Made by a program: the position numbers and the translations under genes. The notes below the pieces were generated by a model that searched no databases, had not been told where the DNA came from, and saw only the letters and a list, made by a program, of their open reading frames with translations. Shown here piece by piece: positions 25,418-33,722 of a DNA stretch of 64,000 bases. Source of the DNA: Nitrospirota bacterium (GTDB lineage: Bacteria > Nitrospirota > UBA9217); contig CAVVOB010000021.1 of NCBI GenBank assembly GCA_963749655.1, positions 32,001 through 96,000 of the forward strand, read 5' to 3'. The stretch's first letter is position 1. Every line of letters starts with the position of its first letter.

Positions 25418-26287
25418 CTACTTTCCCATCTTGGCGAGCCTACCTTTGGCGATTTCAGCTTCGTTCGTTCCCGGATGCTCCTTGATCACCTTGTGAAAAT
25501 ACTCTTTTGCTTTGGCTGAGTTCTTTTCGCCCAGGTAGGAAAGTCCTATTTTAAGCTTGGCTCCTGCGACCTTGTCGCTCCGGGGATAGGTCTTGATGAC
25601 TTTGCTGAAAGCGTCGACGGCTTTTTTGAAATCATTCTTGGAATAATAACATTCTCCGATCCAGTACTGCGCCATGGCCGCCTGGCTGGCTTCGGGGAAC
25701 TGAGTGATATAATTCTGGAACCCTGCGAGCGCAAGATCGAAGTTGCCCGCGTCGTAATCACTCTTCGCCTGGCGATAGGCGTCTGAGGGTTCGATGGTTT
25801 TGGGAGGCGCTTGTTTCTCGAAAGCCGCCGATCCGGTCTGTCCCGAGACTGCGCCCGCTGCAGCGCCGGCCTGCTTCAGTTTCTGCTCGAGTGCTTCGAC
25901 CCGCGCGGTGAGCTCGACAACCTTGACCCCGCGGTCGTCGACCTTCTGCGCAAGCTCGGCGATCCGATAGTTATTCTCTTCGAGCTTGCCTTGGAGCAGC
26001 TGGATATCGGTCAGCAGCTGGTCGGATTTTGCCCCGTAGTCCGCCATGACCTTCTGCACATCGACCGTTCCCTTGAGGTTCGCGTCGAGGCTGTCGACAT
26101 GCTTCTGGAGCGCCTGCACGTCCTTGTCCAGGCGCTTCTGAATATCCTGGACTCGCTGTTTCGTCGTATTCACGTCGTCGCGCAGGCCGGTCATGTCAGA
26201 TCTCGTCTTGACCAACTCGGCCTGCGGCGCGCATGCCGAGACCAGAAACAGGACAGCGAAAACAGCAATTGAGCGGCTGATCGTCAT
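25418..26287 (-). CDS. cpoB: Tol-Pal system protein YbgF/CpoB
   Basis: Lipobox LVSAC, coiled coil, TPR AQYWIGECYY; downstream of pal. Confidence 0.9.
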   Translation of the reverse strand: MTISRSIAVFAVLFLVSACAPQAELVKTRSDMTGLRDDVNTTKQRVQDIQKRLDKDVQALQKHVDSLDANLKGTVDVQKVMADYGAKSDQLLTDIQLLQGKLEENNYRIAELAQKVDDRGVKVVELTARVEALEQKLKQAGAAAGAVSGQTGSAAFEKQAPPKTIEPSDAYRQAKSDYDAGNFDLALAGFQNYITQFPEASQAAMAQYWIGECYYSKNDFKKAVDAFSKVIKTYPRSDKVAGAKLKIGLSYLGEKNSAKAKEYFHKVIKEHPGTNEAEIAKGRLAKMGK

Positions 26288-26382
26288 GGGGACCTTTCGC
26301 GCAGAGGGAAGATAAAAAGCTGCCGGAACGGGATTACGGGGACCGTAGGAGCACGGCCCGCTTTTCCCGCTCCGGACGTCGG

Positions 26383-26934
26383 CTACTCGGCAGCAACGAA
26401 ATCGTTACGCCGGTTCTTCTGCCAGCAATCCTCCGTGCCTTGTGTGCAGACGGGCTTTTCCTTGCCGTAGCTGATGAGCGAAATACGCTTGCCCGATATG
26501 CCCAGGTCGGTGAGGTACTTCTTGGCGCTCGCTGCGCGACGCTGGCCGAGGGCCTGGTTGTACTCTATCGTGCCGCGTTCGTCACAGTTTCCCTCGATCT
26601 TGACCTTGGCCTTGGGATTGGCCTTGAGCCAGTCGGCATTCGCCTTCATGACCGCCTTGGCATCGTCGCGGACAAAGGATTTGTCGAAATCGAAATAAAT
26701 CGGCTGCAGGCCTGCCTGGGCGGCCGGGGCCTGTTCCTTCACCTCTTCAGCGGGCTTGGCCGCTTCCGGCGCAGGCGCTGCCGGCTGCTCGGCTTTCGGT
26801 TCTTCCTTCGCAGGCGCGGTCTCGGCGGGCGTCTCGGGAGCGGTGGTCACTTCAGCCTTCTTGGGACATCCCCAGAGAACAAAGACACTTAACAATAAAA
26901 TGATCGGAACATTCATACGAAAGATGCGTTTCAT
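26383..26934 (-). CDS. pal: Peptidoglycan-associated lipoprotein
   Basis: IYFDFDKS, IEGNCDERGTIEYNQALGQRRA, SYGKEKP. Confidence 0.95.
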   Translation of the reverse strand: MKRIFRMNVPIILLLSVFVLWGCPKKAEVTTAPETPAETAPAKEEPKAEQPAAPAPEAAKPAEEVKEQAPAAQAGLQPIYFDFDKSFVRDDAKAVMKANADWLKANPKAKVKIEGNCDERGTIEYNQALGQRRAASAKKYLTDLGISGKRISLISYGKEKPVCTQGTEDCWQKNRRNDFVAAE

Positions 26935-27140: not shown

Positions 27141-27649
27141 CTACCATCGATTTTCATGCACCCGCGAGGCATCAAATCGGTCAGTCGCAGTCCTGGTTTC
27201 CTCGGGAAAACCCAGCGGGACTAGGGAAAAGGGAACAACGGTTTCCGGCAGCAAAAAAGCTTGCGAAAGTTCGCGACACGGTCATCGGTCGGGTAGACAC
27301 CGCACCACACCGCGCCCAGGCCCTTTGCATGGGCCGCGAGCAGCATGTTCTCCGTTGCCGCCGCACAATCGAGCACCCAGTGACCGGCGTAACGTTCCAG
27401 GGCCGTATCGCCGCAGACGAGAATGGCGACCCGGGCATGCTTCAGCATCGCCGAGTAGGGATGGAATTCCATAATCTTGCCGAAGATCGCGGGATCGGAA
27501 AGGACAATGAAATGCCACGGCCGCTCATTGCCCGCTGACGGCGCGCTCATCGCGGCTTTCAGGACGTCGTTGACGGCGTCAGGGGACACCTGCTTTGCCG
27601 CGTAGAGCCGTATGCTGCGTCGCGTAAATATCGCCTCGAGTGCGTCCAT
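27141..27649 (-). CDS. Nitroreductase family protein (frameshift in an A run near 27255)
   Basis: RRSIR, APSAGNERPWHF, MLLAAHAKGLGAVW; C-terminus LPETVVPFSLVPLGFP...HENRW in another frame. Confidence 0.88.
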
Positions 27650-27780
27650 GGTGCACCTTCCTTTCAAGAGCTGCTGTCAGCGGCCAGCCGTCAGCTTTCA
27701 GCTTGAACCAAGAAGAGACAAAACTCCTGATTTTTTACTGCTTGCATCGATCTATGCTTTGACACAAGCTGACCGCTGCT

Positions 27781-28845
27781 TTACCCCATGAAACACTGCG
27801 GGTCGTCGGCAAGAAAGTCCTCTCCGCCTTGAGCGCGGGAATAGGCATAAGCGATCGCCCTGCAGCCCCTGCAGAGCGCCCAGCGGCTGCAGCTCCCGCA
27901 TTTCCCCGTGTATCTCTTCCGGTCCCTGAGCGCCTCGAGCACGGGAGAGGCGGCCCAGACCTCCCGCAGGGAATCGCGCCTGACATTGCCGAGCGAAAGG
28001 GGAAGCCGTCTGCAGGGCAGCACGTTGCCGTTCGGTTGAATGGTCAGCCCCGACACACCGGCTGCGCAGCCGCTTACCGCCGTCGCGCCCGCGTCTCCGT
28101 TCGCGGCGATCTTCATCTGCGCCGCGACGGGATCGCCGGTAGTAATATCGAGGTTGACGATCTCCAGGGACAGGAGCGACTGGTACAGCTCCCGGAGCGG
28201 CTCACGGTCGAGCATGCAGGACATCAGCGTCCGTCCCTTTCCCGAGGGAACCAGGCGGGAGAACCCGATGCGCTGCACGCCGGCATGGGAGCCGAAGGCC
28301 ACGACTTTTTTCGCCTGGTCCGCGTTCAGGCTCGAGAGTGTGATATTGAGGGTCACGGCGAGGCCCGCGTCGACGAGCCGCTCGATCCCCGCTGCGGCAG
28401 CGGAAAAGCTTCCCCCACCACGGATGGAGTCGTGAACATCTTCCGGACCTTCGATACTCACCTGCACGCCCTTGACGCCGAGGTCCGCGAGCTTCCGGGC
28501 GCGCACCTGGTCCACGAGCGTCCCGTTGGTCAGGAGGAACACGTCGAATCCGGTGTTTTTGATCTCCGCGAGAATGTCGAACAGATCGTGCCGCAGGAAC
28601 GGCTCTCCTCCCGTTACATTTATGCTTCGGGTAAAAGCCATATCGTAGGTCTCGGACCATGCATCGACCAGGTCCGCGGCCTCATGCAGGGCTTTCCGGA
28701 TTTCCGAAAGGGACATCTCGTCGATGCCGCGCTCGCCCTGGTAGCAGTGCCGGCACCAGAGGTTGCAGCGTTCGGTGAGATGCCACTGAAAAAAGAAATC
28801 AAAGGGCTTGTGGTCTGGCTGACCGTTATGACGGTTAGTAAGCAT
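27781..28845 (-). CDS. Radical SAM/SPASM domain protein, putative peptide maturase
   Basis: FQWHLTERCNLWCRHC, TGGEPF, SPASM CAAG...PC...CGSC...CRGC...DPQC. Confidence 0.92.
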   Translation of the reverse strand: MLTNRHNGQPDHKPFDFFFQWHLTERCNLWCRHCYQGERGIDEMSLSEIRKALHEAADLVDAWSETYDMAFTRSINVTGGEPFLRHDLFDILAEIKNTGFDVFLLTNGTLVDQVRARKLADLGVKGVQVSIEGPEDVHDSIRGGGSFSAAAAGIERLVDAGLAVTLNITLSSLNADQAKKVVAFGSHAGVQRIGFSRLVPSGKGRTLMSCMLDREPLRELYQSLLSLEIVNLDITTGDPVAAQMKIAANGDAGATAVSGCAAGVSGLTIQPNGNVLPCRRLPLSLGNVRRDSLREVWAASPVLEALRDRKRYTGKCGSCSRWALCRGCRAIAYAYSRAQGGEDFLADDPQCFMG

Positions 28846-28857
28846 GATTGATGGCAG

Positions 28858-29093
28858 TTAATGCGATTCCGGAAAAGTTACGACGGCACAGGCCGGAGCG
28901 CCCTGCATAGGAAGCAGGCGTCCTCACCCGGTCTGGCCGCCGGGCTCGTTTGTGTTGCTGACCAGCAACATCAGGTCTTTCAGCCTTTTCATTTGTGACA
29001 AAACAGGCCGGGGCTCGATTTGGCCCGCTCTTTCAGGGCCTTCCAATATGCGGCTTCCTTGAGAAGGACCTCCCTGCTCACATTCTTCTTCAT
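28858..29093 (-). CDS. Putative RiPP precursor peptide with in-frame UGA (candidate selenopeptide); reading frame of the 3' half ambiguous
   Basis: AGGGAGGTGA RBS and ATG at 29093, MKKNVSREVLLKEAAYWKALKERAKSSPGLF...; directly upstream of the rSAM/SPASM gene; absent from the ORF track. Confidence 0.68.
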
Positions 29094-29192
29094 CCGGTTC
29101 TCACCTCCCTTCGCTCCGCATAAAATAAAGCATAGCATATTCCGGCAGTGCCGGACGACAGTCGCAGATACTCACCGCGCAGGACTTGATTC

Positions 29193-29954
29193 TCAGGGAT
29201 GGGCGACAGGCCGTCGTGTAAGCAGAGCTGCGGCTTCGCGATCGATCATCCACGTGACCGTGCCGCGCTCCGGCTTTACGAGCCCGGCAGGACAGCGTTT
29301 CGGATTGCCGTCTTCGAGGATCTCGTGCAGCACAGCCGCCTTTGCGCTGCCCGAGAGGAGGTACAGGACCTTTGCCGCATGGTTCAGGACCGGGAGCGTC
29401 AATGACACACGGTTCAGGTCCGGCGGTTCACGGAAGACGGGAACGGCAAGCCGCGTTCGTTCGCGCAGTGCCGGCGATCCGGGAAACAGGGACGCTGTAT
29501 GACCGTCTGCGCCAGCGCCGAGAAGGACGAGATCGAACACGGGGTAGCTTCCCTTGCCGAAATAGGAAGACAGGGACACCTCGTACTCCCGGGCCGCTGC
29601 TTCCGGGTCCGCTTCTCCGCGGATCCGGTGTATGTTTCCTTCCGGGATCATGACCTCGTCGAGCAGCGTTCTCTTCAGCATCCCGAAATTGCTGTTCCGG
29701 TCGCCAGGGGGCACGCACCGCTCATCGGTCCAAAAAAGGTGAAGCGAGGACCAGTCGATGCGTGCGCGGTAGGGGTCCGCAGCAAGGATGCTGAAAAGCC
29801 GTTTCGGCGTCGTTCCGCCGGACAGCGCAACGGCGACTCCACGCGCTGGTTTGTCCTTCTGCTCCGAGCAGGAAACGACAACATCGGCAGCCGCGCTGCT
29901 CAGGTCCTCGATGCTGTCGTAGACGCGCACCGCGGGATGTTCATCCTTCCTCAC
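29193..29954 (-). CDS. pgl: 6-phosphogluconolactonase
   Basis: [31 protein letters not shown]. Confidence 0.94.
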
Positions 29955-31525
29955 AGCTGTCTCCAGGACCGGCCGTCCCGCCCGATCAGCTGCTGCGCAA
30001 CCGAAGGCCCGGCAGTGCCGGCGGCATAACGGGGAATGGTTGCTGCCGTGAGCGAGGCATCGAGTTTCTCGATCGCCGGCGAGAGGATCGCCCAGGACCG
30101 CTCCACATCATCCTCGCGGGTGAAGAGCATATGGTCGCCCTGCATGCAGTCCAGGAGCACCCATTCGTAGGCATCGAGCTCCACGTCCCGCGGATAGGAG
30201 TAGTCCATTACCACGGGAGCCAGGCAGACCTTCGTACCCGGCAGCTTTGCCTGGAAAATGAGGCTCATTCCGTCGTCGGGCTGCACCCTGAGCACTAGGA
30301 CGTTGGGCTCGATGGGTCCCTCTACCGTAGGAGGAAAGAGGAAGTGCGGGACCTGGCGGTAGTGGATCGAGATCTCGGTTATGCGACGGGGAAGCCGCTT
30401 GCCCGAACGAAGATAAAAGGGCACGCCGTTCCAGCGCCAGTTGTCGATCAATATTTTCATGGCCGCGAACGTGGGGGTCTTTGATTGGGACGATACACCC
30501 TGCTCCTCGCGGTAGCCCGGCACGGACGCGCCCTGGATGGCACCGCGGTCGTACTGGCCCACGGCGATGAATTCGTCCAGCTTGTCCGCGGGGAAGGGGC
30601 GGATGGAGCGGAACACCTTGATCTTTTCATCCCGCACCCGGTCCGCCTCGAAACCTGCCGGCGGCTCCATGGCCGTGAGCGCGAGCAGCTGAAACATGTG
30701 GTTCTGGAACATGTCGCGGATCACACCGGCATCCTCGTAGTAGCCGGCGCGGTGCTCGATGCCGAGGGTCTCGGCGGCTGTGATCTGCACGTGGTCGATG
30801 TAGCGCCTGTTCCAGAGGGGCTCGAAGATCGAGTTTGCGAAGCGGAACATCAGGATGTTCTGGACCGTTTCCTTCGCAAGATAATGATCGATGCGGTAGA
30901 TCTGACTTTCCTTGTAGTAGGTATGCATGAGCGCATTCAGCTTACGGGCCGATGCGAGATCGCTGCCGAAGGGCTTTTCCACGACCACCTGGCTCCGGCC
31001 TTTTTCCTCGCTTGCCAGTCCTGTGGCGCCGAGATTGTGGATCACATCCTCGAATACCGTGGGCGGGATGGCGAGGTAGAAGAGGCGGTTTCCGCCGGTC
31101 TGATGCTTCTTCTCCAGCTCCGGGAGCCGGTCCCGGAGGTCCCGAACATAGGAATTCCGGTTGCCGTAGTCGAAGGTGGAGTAGTACAGCTGGGGGGCGA
31201 AAGCGTCCCAGGCCTTGGGGTCGAAGTCACGCGGCAGGGCGATCTTCACCGCCTCCTCCATGGCGGTCCGAAACTGCTCCGGGGTCATCTCGATCCGGCT
31301 CGTGCCAAGGATGAAGAAGTGTCCGGGCAGGATACGGTTCTTGAAGAGCCGGTACAGGGAGGGAAGGAGCTTTCTTTTCGTGAGGTCCCCCGATGCGCCG
31401 AAAATGACGATGCCCGCAGAACGCGGAATCTCCATGTCGCAGTTCCCGATGGTCCGGTACTCAGGCTCTTCCGGGGAGCTCCGCTCCAGCACCGCTTCAC
31501 CGCCTTGTTTATCATGCTGCTCCAT
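29951..31525 (-). CDS. zwf: Glucose-6-phosphate 1-dehydrogenase
   Basis: [34 protein letters not shown]. Confidence 0.96.
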
Positions 31526-32405
31526 AGACCCTCGCTTTCGGCTCGCTGATCAGGGCATTCCAGTCCGCGGAGAATTTCTCCATGCCCTTCTTCGTGAGCT
31601 CATGGTGAATATCGTAGTCTTGCCAGGGTTTGCCGAGGTCGATATGCCGGTACGCGATCGGCCTGAGGCCCCTGCTCTCGTAGTGGTAATCTTCACGGGG
31701 AACCGGCATGCCGGCCTCGCTCCATGTTTTCAGGACCTCATAGGGTGCGGTAATGATGTCCGACCCCAGCCTGAGGGCATAGAGCATATGGTCGAGGCTG
31801 CGCACGCTCGCGGTAAGGACCTCGACGTGCCCGTCTCCGGCCGCGTACATCTCGAGAATATGGGCGATCAGGTCCATGCCCTCTTCTCCCCGATCATCGA
31901 GCCTGCCGACAAAGGGAGAAACGTAGACCTGGCCTTTTCGCGCGCCCCGCGTTGCTGCATACACTGCAGCGGCCTGCTCCTGGGAGAAACAGAGCGTCAG
32001 GTTCACCCGCATGCCTGCCTGCACGGCCTGCTCCGCCGCGTTCAAGCCCTCCCGCGTCGTCGGGAATTTCACGTGAGCATTCGCGATCCAGGAGAACATC
32101 TCCTTTCCCTGCCGGAGCATGGTTTCAGCCCGCGATGCTGCGTCCGAGTAGACCTCCACGGACACCGATCCCCCGGGGATCAGTGCGGAGATTGAGGTGA
32201 CGACTTCGCGGTAAAAAGCAAGAATCTCTTCAGCGCTGAACCTGCCGCCCGCTTCCAGACGTTTTCGCGCTTCGGGATTCTTTGCGATCAAGGTCGGATT
32301 CGTAGTCTGCCCGTCGAGAAACCCGAGCAGTTCCTTGATCGTCTTTGTTTCGTTCGGATCGCCTCCATCGAGAAATATTCTCGTTTTCAGATTCTTCGGT
32401 TTCAT
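31512..32405 (-). CDS. tal: Transaldolase
   Basis: [36 protein letters not shown]. Confidence 0.92.
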
Positions 32406-32548
32406 ACGCTCGCCTCCTTGTAAATTCAAAGGCCCCGAAGGCTGTTTCTAGGCTCAAGTTTCAAGTCTCAGTTTCAAGCTCCGGGCACCACGCATTCCTG
32501 CGTGCCCCTTGTCTTCATTTCGCATTCCGAATTCAAAACCATTACTTC

Positions 32549-33451
32549 TTACCCTTCCCGGCCCCCGACCTCATGGCCCCCGAACTGATTGCGCAGCGCA
32601 GAAATGATTTTGCCCGTATAGCTCGGGTTTTTCTGCGACGAGATCCGGAAATCCAGTGCCCCCTCGATGATCGGCGCCGGGATCCCAAGCTCTCTCGCCG
32701 CATCCACCGTCCACCGGCCCTCGCCGCTCTGCGCCGCGGACCCTGAAATGCCGCTCAAGTCCTTCCCGTACTGCTCATAGGCGTTCTTGAGCCATCCCAC
32801 GAGACGCGACTCGATCACGCTCCGGTGATTGTAGAGCTCGGCGATGGCGGAGAGATCGAGGTCGAAACCTGATGCCTTCATGACTGCAAAACCTTCTGCC
32901 AACGCCTGCATCATTCCGTATTCAATGCCGTTATGTACCATCTTGACGAAATGTCCGGCCCCGTGCAGGCCCATATATCCGTAGCCCCCTTCCGTCGCAA
33001 GATCACGGAACAGGCCCTCGCAGCGGCTGTAGGCAGCCTTCTTCCCGCCGGCCATGATGCACGCTCCGCGCCGCGCGCCCTCGGGCCCGCCGCTTACGCC
33101 GACATCGAGAAATTCAAGCCCTTTCCCCTTGAGTTCCCCTGCCCGGCGGATCGATTCCTTATAGGGCGAATTTCCGCCGTCGATGACCGTGTCTCCCTTT
33201 GCGAGGTGCGGCGCCAGGTCAGCCAGCACCGCATCAACGGCCGTGTGCGGGACCATTATCCAGACCAGACGAGGGGCTTCCAGGGACTGCGCCAGCGCCG
33301 CAACGGATGCCGCAGCCAGAGCTCCTTTTTTCGACAGCGCCTCCACGGCCTCCCGGCCCCGGTCGAATACCACAACCTGATGCCCCTTCTCCAGAAGCCG
33401 TTCGACCATGTTGAATCCCATCTTGCCCAGACCGATATAACCGAGTTTCAT
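32549..33451 (-). CDS. gnd: Decarboxylating 6-phosphogluconate dehydrogenase (short type)
   Basis: GLGKMG, DGGNS, VSGG, GHFVKMVHNGIEYG, ALRNQFGGH. Confidence 0.95.
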   Translation of the reverse strand: MKLGYIGLGKMGFNMVERLLEKGHQVVVFDRGREAVEALSKKGALAAASVAALAQSLEAPRLVWIMVPHTAVDAVLADLAPHLAKGDTVIDGGNSPYKESIRRAGELKGKGLEFLDVGVSGGPEGARRGACIMAGGKKAAYSRCEGLFRDLATEGGYGYMGLHGAGHFVKMVHNGIEYGMMQALAEGFAVMKASGFDLDLSAIAELYNHRSVIESRLVGWLKNAYEQYGKDLSGISGSAAQSGEGRWTVDAARELGIPAPIIEGALDFRISSQKNPSYTGKIISALRNQFGGHEVGGREG

Positions 33452-33722
33452 CCCTGTCTCCTTAGATACATCAGACGTACTATAATATTCCACCGCGAAG
33501 AGGTGTGGCCTGACTCGCGGGTTTCCATTCCGCATTCCAATTCCGCACTTCTCTTGCTTCATCCCCCGGTATAGCTGAAGGCGCAGAGATGTTTCGAGAT
33601 GCTGTTCCGCACTACGATTCCGGACAAGCCGGAATGACGACTTTTTACATCGCAAGTAATATTGTTATCATCACTTCCACAACACAAAGCGCAATTAAAG
33701 CTTAACTGAAAATCTTCCCCCC

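Follow-up and report, generated by a model that had tools for sequence, protein, structure and literature searches.

A conserved peptide gene with two in-frame UGA codons beside a radical SAM/SPASM enzyme: a candidate selenopeptide cassette of anaerobic bacteria

The DNA examined in the present study is a 64,000-nucleotide stretch of the genome of a Nitrospirota bacterium (GTDB lineage Bacteria; Nitrospirota; UBA9217), comprising positions 32,001 to 96,000 of contig CAVVOB010000021.1 in GenBank assembly GCA_963749655.1; it is referred to below as the window, and all coordinates count from its first letter. On the reverse strand, a short unannotated gene encoding a peptide with two putative selenocysteine (Sec, U) residues adjoins the gene of a radical S-adenosylmethionine (SAM)/SPASM enzyme, with a small hairpin and a longer stem-loop between the two (Table 1). 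An earlier reading made from the letters of the window alone (the sequence-only reading) had proposed an unannotated, Sec-containing, precursor-like peptide directly upstream of such an enzyme, and this layout, together with the Shine-Dalgarno sequence and the ATG at 29093, is present as described, although the Sec codons lie elsewhere than was proposed. Translation from this ATG begins MKKNVSREVLLKEAAYWKALKERAKSSPGLF, then CHK, and under genetic code table 11 the open reading frame (ORF) ends at the first TGA (MKK...PGLFCHK). That TGA, previously taken for the stop of the ORF, is a conserved in-frame UGA with the next TGA nine bases later; the codons from it onwards are TGA-AAA-GGC-TGA-AAG-ACC-TGA, and the C-terminus of the peptide is a Cys-x-x-Sec-x-x-Sec motif. 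Of the 84 related peptide genes listed, nearly all have a Shine-Dalgarno sequence resembling AAGGAGGTGA 6-8 nucleotides (nt) 5' of the start codon.

Table 1 Features of the peptide and radical SAM/SPASM locus, in window coordinates
Feature	Position	Strand	Basis or remark
Shine-Dalgarno sequence AGGGAGGTGA	29101..29110	-	7 nt 5' of the ATG, read from the sequence
Peptide gene, 40 codons plus stop, MKKNVSREVLLKEAAYWKALKERAKSSPGLFCHK-U-KG-U-KT-stop	28971..29093	-	translation with TGA = U
Cys32 codon (TGT)	28998..29000	-	Cys invariant; the locating pattern demanded Cys
First in-frame UGA (putative Sec35)	28989..28991	-	TGA in 84 of 85 unique loci, TGC in one (L086)
Second in-frame UGA (putative Sec38)	28980..28982	-	TGA in 85 of 85 unique loci, though the locating pattern demanded TGA here
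True stop, TGA in the window	28971..28973	-	homologous stop differs among loci
SECIS-like hairpin, GTTGCT-GGTC-AGCAAC	28954..28969	-	T28970 and A28953 can form a seventh pair
Long stem-loop (28942-28881), then UAACUUUUCC	28871..28942	-	terminator- or attenuator-like; from the fold
Radical SAM/SPASM enzyme, 354 residues	27781..28845	-	PF04055 and PF13186

Related genomes yielded 18 orthologous loci of the radical SAM enzyme (53-71% identity), and a scan of one genome per species yielded 80 further loci (45-73% identity), three of which duplicate members of the first set. These loci belong to Nitrospirota, Thermodesulfobacteriota (Syntrophales, Geobacter, Desulfobulbaceae, Syntrophorhabdus and Desulfobaccales), Chloroflexota/Dehalococcoidia and one Deferribacteres bin. 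A peptide of 35-45 residues is encoded 5' of the enzyme at 88 of the 99 loci, giving 85 unique sequences with the consensus MKKxLSxxALxKEAAFWxxxKxAxxxxPGKxC-x-K-U-K-x-U-K-S. Read in the first ORF's frame, the conserved core is C-[HRL..]-K-U-K-x-U-K-x(-x)-stop, and E13, C32, U35, U38 and K39 are invariant in an alignment of 45 sequences.

The codons of the 85 unique loci indicate how this region is read. Both UGA sites are nearly constant (Table 1), and the Cys32 codon alternates between the synonymous TGC (68 loci) and TGT (17). The terminal stop, in contrast, is TAA in 41 loci, TGA in 29 and TAG in 15, and lies two (51), three (32) or four (2) codons past the second UGA. The first UGA is followed by AAG in 68 loci, AAA in 12, AGC (Ser) in four and AAC (Asn) in one, and the second by a Lys codon, either AAG (69) or AAA (16), while Ser between the two UGAs is encoded by AGC (17), AGT (8), TCC (9) or TCG (1). 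As Ser is drawn from two codon boxes and the stop varies in both codon and position, both UGAs appear to be read through in frame, and the codons that follow them are, judged by this usage, under amino-acid selection.

As a check on bias from the locating pattern, metagenome contigs were scanned with a degenerate Dehalococcoidia-type core pattern that permitted TGA, TGC or TGT at both sites. The figures rest on 80 of 102 matches, of which 77 were real and three had arisen by chance (L148, L185 and L186). Among the matches listed, all 77 real ones carry TGA at both sites, and the codon that comes next is TAG in 37, TAA in 26 and TGA in 13, the remaining one being cut off at a contig end. An in-frame UGA kept across homologues while the true stop varies is the pattern of a bacterial selenoprotein gene, and alignment of these loci indicates that pattern here.

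Directly 3' of the peptide stop codon lies a small hairpin resembling a selenocysteine insertion sequence (SECIS). In the 85-sequence alignment (A2), its six pairs are 97.4% paired and four of them covary (the closing pair, for example, occurs as U-A, C-G and A-U), with 65 cells changed on both sides; the hairpin score was reached by none of 500 shuffles, slid registers fall to 13-58% paired, and the helix is also predicted by RNAalifold. Of the loop sequences, 56 read GGTC(N) and 14 read GGTTC. The stem starts 9-12 nt after the second UGA at 81 of the 85 loci and 17 nt after it at the other four. This spacing is kept both in the Syntrophales and Dehalococcoidia peptides, which have an extra residue and no spacer, and where 0-2 spacer bases shift the downstream frame. 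This constancy ties the hairpin to the UGAs and not to the stop codon or to a coding function. The same architecture is found in the host itself, where the TGA of a formate-dehydrogenase-like gene (L116) is followed after 12 nt by a 6-bp stem with a GGUCU loop, and the SECIS of Escherichia coli fdhF has a similar loop at an 11-nt spacing. For the second UGA, the alignment thus indicates a covarying stem-loop kept at a short, fixed distance. None belonging to the first UGA was found; the 2026 review PMC13188914 lists three predicted bacterial selenoprotein families with UxxU motifs, in which two UGAs would be spaced by the same 9 nt. The hairpin noted in the sequence-only reading is not the SECIS; the SECIS-like one is that at 28969-28954.

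A variant arrangement is seen in Syntrophales-type loci, where the coding region of the enzyme starts within or just after the hairpin; at L081-L098 the FDFF(I/L)QWH start region is only 32-47 nt past the first UGA. Given this gap, the SECIS of these loci must overlap the 5' coding end of the enzyme gene, and the two genes are probably translationally coupled.

The host encodes SelB (367.5 bits against a cut-off of 242), a tRNA-Sec (62.8 bits against 47) approximately 4 kb from selB on the same contig, and FdhA (1543.6 bits) with one in-frame TGA. It is therefore equipped with SelB, tRNA-Sec and other selenoprotein genes, which bears out the earlier suggestion that it decodes Sec. SelB was also found in 17 of 19 related genomes bearing the enzyme, all but one with an adjacent peptide; the two in which it was not found are G016 (89% complete) and G021 (96% complete). 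Several formate-dehydrogenase-like genes with one in-frame TGA each are spread over the host genome (G000, contigs C14, C19, C30 and C13), the copy on C19 being in several pieces. Based on the conserved UGAs, the varying stop and the hairpin, the short gene is very probably a real two-Sec selenopeptide gene with a SECIS.

Protein databases hold the peptide largely in truncated form. Exact termination before the first UGA was seen in 36 of 38 profile matches, and nearly all of 122 database representatives likewise end before it, with names that are 'hypothetical protein' at best. Cysteine in place of Sec at the first site was seen in DNA at L086 (TGC) and in a database protein, P0215, which ends ...CLK-C-KS and is cut at the second site. 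Another entry, P0162, has Trp at all three TGA positions and is evidently a gene call made under a code in which TGA is Trp, not a variant; it shows how such peptide genes come to be mis-called. The window peptide has no NCBIfam match at E values up to 10 and no real Pfam match, and the 45 family members likewise had no NCBIfam match. A protein search with the window peptide alone gave no candidates, alignment A3 being needed to find homologues, while a search of the ESM Atlas gave no usable match for the peptide P0010, and an Rfam scan of 28800-29200 gave matches at chance level only.

The enzyme encoded downstream combines a radical SAM domain with a complete SPASM domain (PF04055, 83.7 bits; PF13186, 44.1 bits; both above cut-offs). 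The radical SAM CX3CX2C motif is formed by C27, C31 and C34, and the seven SPASM cysteines, for two auxiliary clusters, are C260, C278, C316, C319, C325, C328 and C351; all ten are invariant in 14 orthologues. Only approximately 17-26 residues precede the first cluster cysteine, so that the enzyme lacks an N-terminal RiPP recognition element (RRE; RiPP, a peptide synthesised ribosomally and then modified post-translationally), as the sequence-only reading had noted. None of the best 25 NCBIfam matches reaches its cut-off. The highest score, over the full length, is for the heme b synthase AhbD (TIGR04545, 181.5 bits against 500), followed by the ACGX model (TIGR04340, 158.1 against 400, in two stretches); MftC (143.6 against 265) and SbtM (TIGR04082, 127.9 against 350, aligned over positions 199-516 of 516) also fall short. 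The closest solved relatives are SkfB (6.1e-25), PqqE, anSME and CteB by sequence, and SkfB, SuiB, anSME, ChlB, PqqE and CteB by fold. At least 2114 homologues were found at E <= 1e-60, some of them labelled 'AdoMet-dependent heme synthase', including several from JGI.

Besides the 88 of 99 enzyme loci with an adjacent peptide, the association was observed starting from the peptide. Room for a downstream gene was available at 72 of the 77 metagenome peptide loci; the enzyme is directly downstream in 56 of these and upstream in one (L134), where it lies on the same strand with the gene order reversed. Enzymes without an adjacent peptide are nested inside the peptide-linked clade, and in four of five genomes tested that lack the adjacent peptide, a two-TGA peptide gene with its hairpin was found elsewhere in the genome. 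One such unlinked gene (L228, G044:C26) is convergent to selD (TIGR00476, 367 bits), and another (L229, G042:C13) lies approximately 450 nt upstream of a gene for an ArsS-family radical SAM (seleno)protein (TIGR04167, 356.8 bits); with two cases only, these neighbours may be due to chance or may hint at a link to selenium metabolism.

A complex was predicted for the enzyme of L090 with the natural all-Cys peptide P0010, which is identical to that locus's own peptide at 31 of 39 positions, together with three [4Fe-4S] clusters and SAM; alignments were self-supplied and the ligands were included in the run. Three runs gave ipSAE scores of 0.85, 0.85 and 0.86, compared with 0.01 for the best control, at a mark that in calibration was reached by 58 of 80 solved complexes and two of 110 mismatched pairs. 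The runs share at least 67% of contacts, and the predicted local distance difference test (pLDDT) of the partner is 60-68. Peptide residues 1-28 are placed on enzyme residues 53, 56-59 and 284-299 (L090 numbering), an interface that includes the invariant W53, R286, W289 and R299. As solved leader-maturase complexes (SuiB-SuiA) exist, the high score may partly reflect likeness to these. The model thus predicts that the leader helix binds a conserved surface of the enzyme directly.

The two genes are separated by a long stem-loop, for which a comparable long helix with a U-rich tail was found at 37 of 54 loci with a spacer of at least 60 nt, compared with 71 of 540 mononucleotide shuffles. We infer that it acts as a leaky terminator which keeps the precursor in excess. 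Its 5' arm is formed by the GCAGATATGGC motif; a small ORF starting from this motif, 3' of the SECIS-like hairpin, was considered and rejected, its translations not being conserved. In a Dehalococcoidia-type subgroup (L134, L153, L177, L184, L189, L195 and L202) a long, GC-rich hairpin of terminator-like form lies 3' of the peptide gene.

Among known systems, SbtA/SbtM, termed a 'selenobacteriocin' RiPP, is the closest, as it also consists of a ribosomal Sec precursor beside a radical SAM/SPASM maturase. According to the accessible portion of PMC9204691, its precursor has (at least) two Sec, its maturase is a three-cluster SPASM enzyme forming a thio(seleno)oxazole at G-G-U-G, and its occurrence is confined to Geobacter and Desulfobacteria; the motif is given as G-G-U-G or S-G-U-G there and in the accessible portion of PMC13188914. 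Table 1 of the latter, covering 119 prokaryotic selenoprotein families, lists SbtA/SbtM as the only radical SAM-linked selenopeptide and, as far as the available text goes, contains nothing like the present peptide. The core described here, C-x-K-U-K-x-U-K-x, differs from these motifs and is located at the extreme C-terminus, the peptide has no match to SbtA (TIGR04081), and the enzyme, aligning only to model positions 199-516, is without the N-terminal part of SbtM. The distribution is different as well, extending over Nitrospirota, Syntrophales and other Thermodesulfobacteriota, and Dehalococcoidia. Peptide and enzyme share the general architecture of SbtA/SbtM and fail every other test of membership, and the earlier view of the pair as distinct from that system holds.

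In layout the cassette is most like the SCIFF/ranthipeptide systems (CteB, Tte1186), considered here together with PapA/PapB. SCIFF cassettes consist of two genes, one for a peptide of approximately 40-45 residues with a Cys-rich C-terminus and one for a SPASM radical SAM enzyme, and are widely and vertically spread in anaerobes without a dedicated protease or exporter; the ranthipeptide maturase CteB is also among the closest solved relatives of the enzyme. The present cassette differs in encoding Sec genetically, in its Sec-Lys repeats and in an enzyme without an N-terminal RRE, and no SCIFF/ranthipeptide model is among the best 25 enzyme matches. PapB and Tte1186 accept Sec for Cys and form Se-C links via an auxiliary cluster, according to the accessible part of PMC10177961. 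With the UXX-star families (NF041114 and NF041211, names from Table 1 of PMC13188914 as far as available) only the U-x-x-stop ending is shared, as seen in 51 of 85 peptides, where two residues separate Sec from the stop. Where Sec is this close to the stop, the SECIS must be located in the 3' untranslated region (UTR) right after it. The cassette peptide matches neither model and differs from these families in its leader-plus-core layout, its second Sec and its link to a radical SAM enzyme. Modification of a small precursor at or near its C-terminus by a SPASM enzyme without its own RRE, yielding an intracellular cofactor, is known from mycofactocin (MftA/MftC) and PQQ (PqqA/PqqE). The enzyme scores below the cut-off for MftC, as given above, and for PqqE (88 bits against 381); the residues of the core are Sec, Cys and Lys, in contrast to both systems, and no MftB or PqqD RRE protein or further pathway genes were found near the cassette.

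No earlier description of the peptide was found in the literature searched, with supplements outside this search, and the family may already be named. As the peptide-enzyme pair recurs in several phyla of anaerobes, it appears to represent a new family of modified peptides that contain selenium. We propose, with a probability of approximately two in three, that the locus is a two-gene cassette in which a two-Sec precursor peptide is modified by the adjacent SPASM radical SAM enzyme. The first gene would provide a peptide of approximately 40 residues, in which a conserved amphipathic leader (K-E-A-A-[FY]-W ... N-P-G) precedes a core at the C-terminus, C-x-K-U-K-x-U-K-x-stop, holding two selenocysteines. 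SelB and tRNA-Sec would read both UGAs as Sec, directed by the one small hairpin with its 6-bp stem and GGUC-type loop, and the terminator-like stem-loop would lower read-through into the second gene. The product of that gene, which combines a radical SAM domain with a complete SPASM domain (two auxiliary clusters) and lacks an RRE, is predicted to bind the leader helix directly and would then modify the Cys/Sec-Lys core. The likeliest chemistries would be radical hydrogen abstraction with Se-C or S-C cross-linking, or oxidation of Sec or Cys as in SbtM and anSME. No conserved protease or exporter is found nearby, and the cassette is syntenic and occurs widely among anaerobes. The product is therefore probably a small selenopeptide that, once modified, remains inside the cell and serves in redox chemistry, as a cofactor or in metal binding, and not as an antibiotic.

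If so, the cassette would be the second selenopeptide system matured by a radical SAM enzyme, unrelated to SbtA/SbtM and far more widely spread, in at least three phyla. It would also mark an annotation blind spot, the peptide being present in databases only as 34-residue 'hypothetical proteins' cut at the first UGA, and would offer a natural test case for Sec decoding, with a single, very small SECIS after the stop apparently serving both Sec codons. With only two genes, the cassette is also a compact system in which to look for possibly new chemistry, either selenium-carbon or Sec-oxidation. A bolder version, in which one minimal 3'-UTR SECIS serves two UGAs 9 nt apart and an RRE-less SPASM enzyme turns the C-terminal Cys-x-x-Sec-x-x-Sec triad into an intracellular cofactor based on selenium or a peptide that binds metals or clusters, is tentative, and we would put it at distinctly less than an even chance; if true, the product would be a selenium counterpart of mycofactocin or SCIFF, belonging to the core physiology of anaerobic Nitrospirota, Syntrophales and Dehalococcoidia.

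A number of observations weigh against the cassette as proposed. Of the 72 metagenome peptide loci with room, 15 have no enzyme downstream, although seven of these (L147, L149, L159, L171, L176, L194 and L201) retain a decayed N-terminal remnant of it. Conversely, seven enzyme loci with approximately 1.5 kb of upstream sequence are without a peptide, as is L077 (547 nt); upstream sequence was too short to judge at L045 and L052, and L062 has a degenerate copy reading CK-TAA-RG-TGA-KSHG. In G020, a 100% complete genome, the enzyme is present and no peptide was found. Clustering of the neighbouring genes revealed no conserved protease, exporter or RRE gene near the cassette, and only lineage-specific synteny, with pgl upstream in Nitrospirota relatives and a zinc-ribbon protein downstream in the Dehalococcoidia type. 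The structure model of the enzyme has a mean pLDDT of only 73, and the complex model does not place the peptide core confidently. With regard to Sec decoding, the first UGA is approximately 19-21 nt before the hairpin, farther than in the host FdhA example, and no conserved lower stem enclosing the UGAs was found (51 of 81 sequences, compared with 266 of 405 flank-shuffled controls). P0010 is the one example of Cys at the second site; it ends ...CLACKSCKGK, with Cys at both sites, and we give it less weight, as it is known from a protein record only. Finally, RNA library X6 contains a 196-nt contig of 2.3x depth that spans the whole peptide gene at 95% identity to the window and has CGA (Arg) in place of the second UGA. 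It differs from the window by four synonymous changes, one A19T exchange and this T>C change, which may be an error or a real variant.

In the seven remnant loci the decayed enzyme has stops inside the FxxQWH motif region, the two-Sec peptide gene and hairpin are intact, and the peptide has outlived the adjacent enzyme in that lineage. None of the sequencing runs contained half of the words sampled; the best DNA run (X1, share 0.27) covered parts of the radical SAM gene only. RNA-library contigs span the peptide gene and the start of the enzyme gene, which is no proof of transcription.

These observations bear on an alternative in which the peptide is a stand-alone mini-selenoprotein with a CxxUxxU redox or metal-binding tail, and the enzyme is its partner or donor (of electrons, S/Se or a cluster ligand), with the peptide not its substrate. 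Such a role would account for peptide genes unlinked from the enzyme in at least four genomes, for UGAs and hairpin that persist where the adjacent enzyme is decayed or absent, for the missing protease and exporter, and for the selD and ArsS-family neighbours of unlinked copies, and UxxU motifs do occur in predicted redox or metal-binding selenoproteins (accessible part of PMC13188914). It is less easily reconciled with a leader-plus-core layout like that of a RiPP precursor, with a leader helix predicted to dock on invariant residues of the enzyme, with closest solved relatives that are peptide or protein maturases, or with adjacency at 88 of 99 enzyme loci and 57 of 72 metagenome loci with room, and we regard it as unlikely. 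Much less probable still is that translation ends at the first TGA, giving a 34-residue peptide (...CHK), with the downstream conservation due only to regulation at the RNA level, for instance by an attenuator or terminator hairpin. Gene callers do end there, and the first UGA is farther from the hairpin than in the FdhA example; however, amino-acid conservation continues past this TGA with Ser drawn from two codon boxes, the second TGA never varies while the next stop differs in codon and position, Cys replaces the first TGA in L086 and P0215, the spacing of the hairpin follows the UGAs and not the stop codon, and a separate terminator-like stem-loop is located further 3'.

That the enzyme is the heme b synthase AhbD, unrelated to the peptide, is highly improbable. 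AhbD is its best NCBIfam match, several JGI homologues carry the heme synthase label, and no better candidate was found in the host genome (86.6% complete), but the score is far under the cut-off, no AhbC was found in the host (the best match, 102 bits against 650, is the same gene) and the tight linkage of this gene to the peptide holds in several phyla. Ferrochelatase HemH is present (209 bits against 124.6), indicating a heme route other than the siroheme-dependent one; with neither AhbD nor AhbC above cut-offs in the host, the label is unsupported. The sequence-only reading proposed a 78-residue precursor, fused through a frameshift or an error of assembly, with its T-G-U-G core at UGA 28924-28926; this retains hardly any credence. 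The second frame does exist, running from ATG 28992 through MKRLKDLMLLVSNTNEPGGQTG and the TGA at 28926-28924 to the TAA at 28860-28858, 12 nt before the enzyme ATG at 28845, and L002 also ends this frame with G-TGA. The frame is not conserved, however: in 18 loci, comprising the window and relatives, it spans 19-64 residues and ends at non-homologous stops (TAG 10, TAA 3, TGA 5), a 1-nt difference in the spacer removes its 'LLVSN' stretch in L003, L008 and L018, and the 'G-TGA' ending occurs only in L001 and L002. An assembly indel in the T4 run at 29003-29000 is not needed, as the same two-frame arrangement is found in all relatives, and the only contig reaching the run (contig 9 of RNA library X6) has no indel. 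The UGA in question falls inside the non-coding, terminator-like long stem-loop.

The remaining genes of the neighbourhood are on the same strand and were named by eye from translations, except where a score is given. Those 5' of the peptide (29193-33655) resemble a pentose phosphate operon, comprising 6-phosphogluconolactonase, glucose-6-phosphate dehydrogenase, transaldolase and a 6-phosphogluconate-dehydrogenase-like gene, and the lactonase-like neighbour is syntenic in 18 related loci. Just 3' of the radical SAM gene is a nitroreductase-family ORF of 148 residues (27221-27667), which matches only the N-terminal part of its models (BluB-like, 50.7 bits against a cut-off of 150); a second ORF (27181-27438) overlaps it, suggesting a frameshifted or truncated gene. 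Further 3' of the cassette, at 25418-26934, are Pal/OmpA-like and YbgF/CpoB-like genes.

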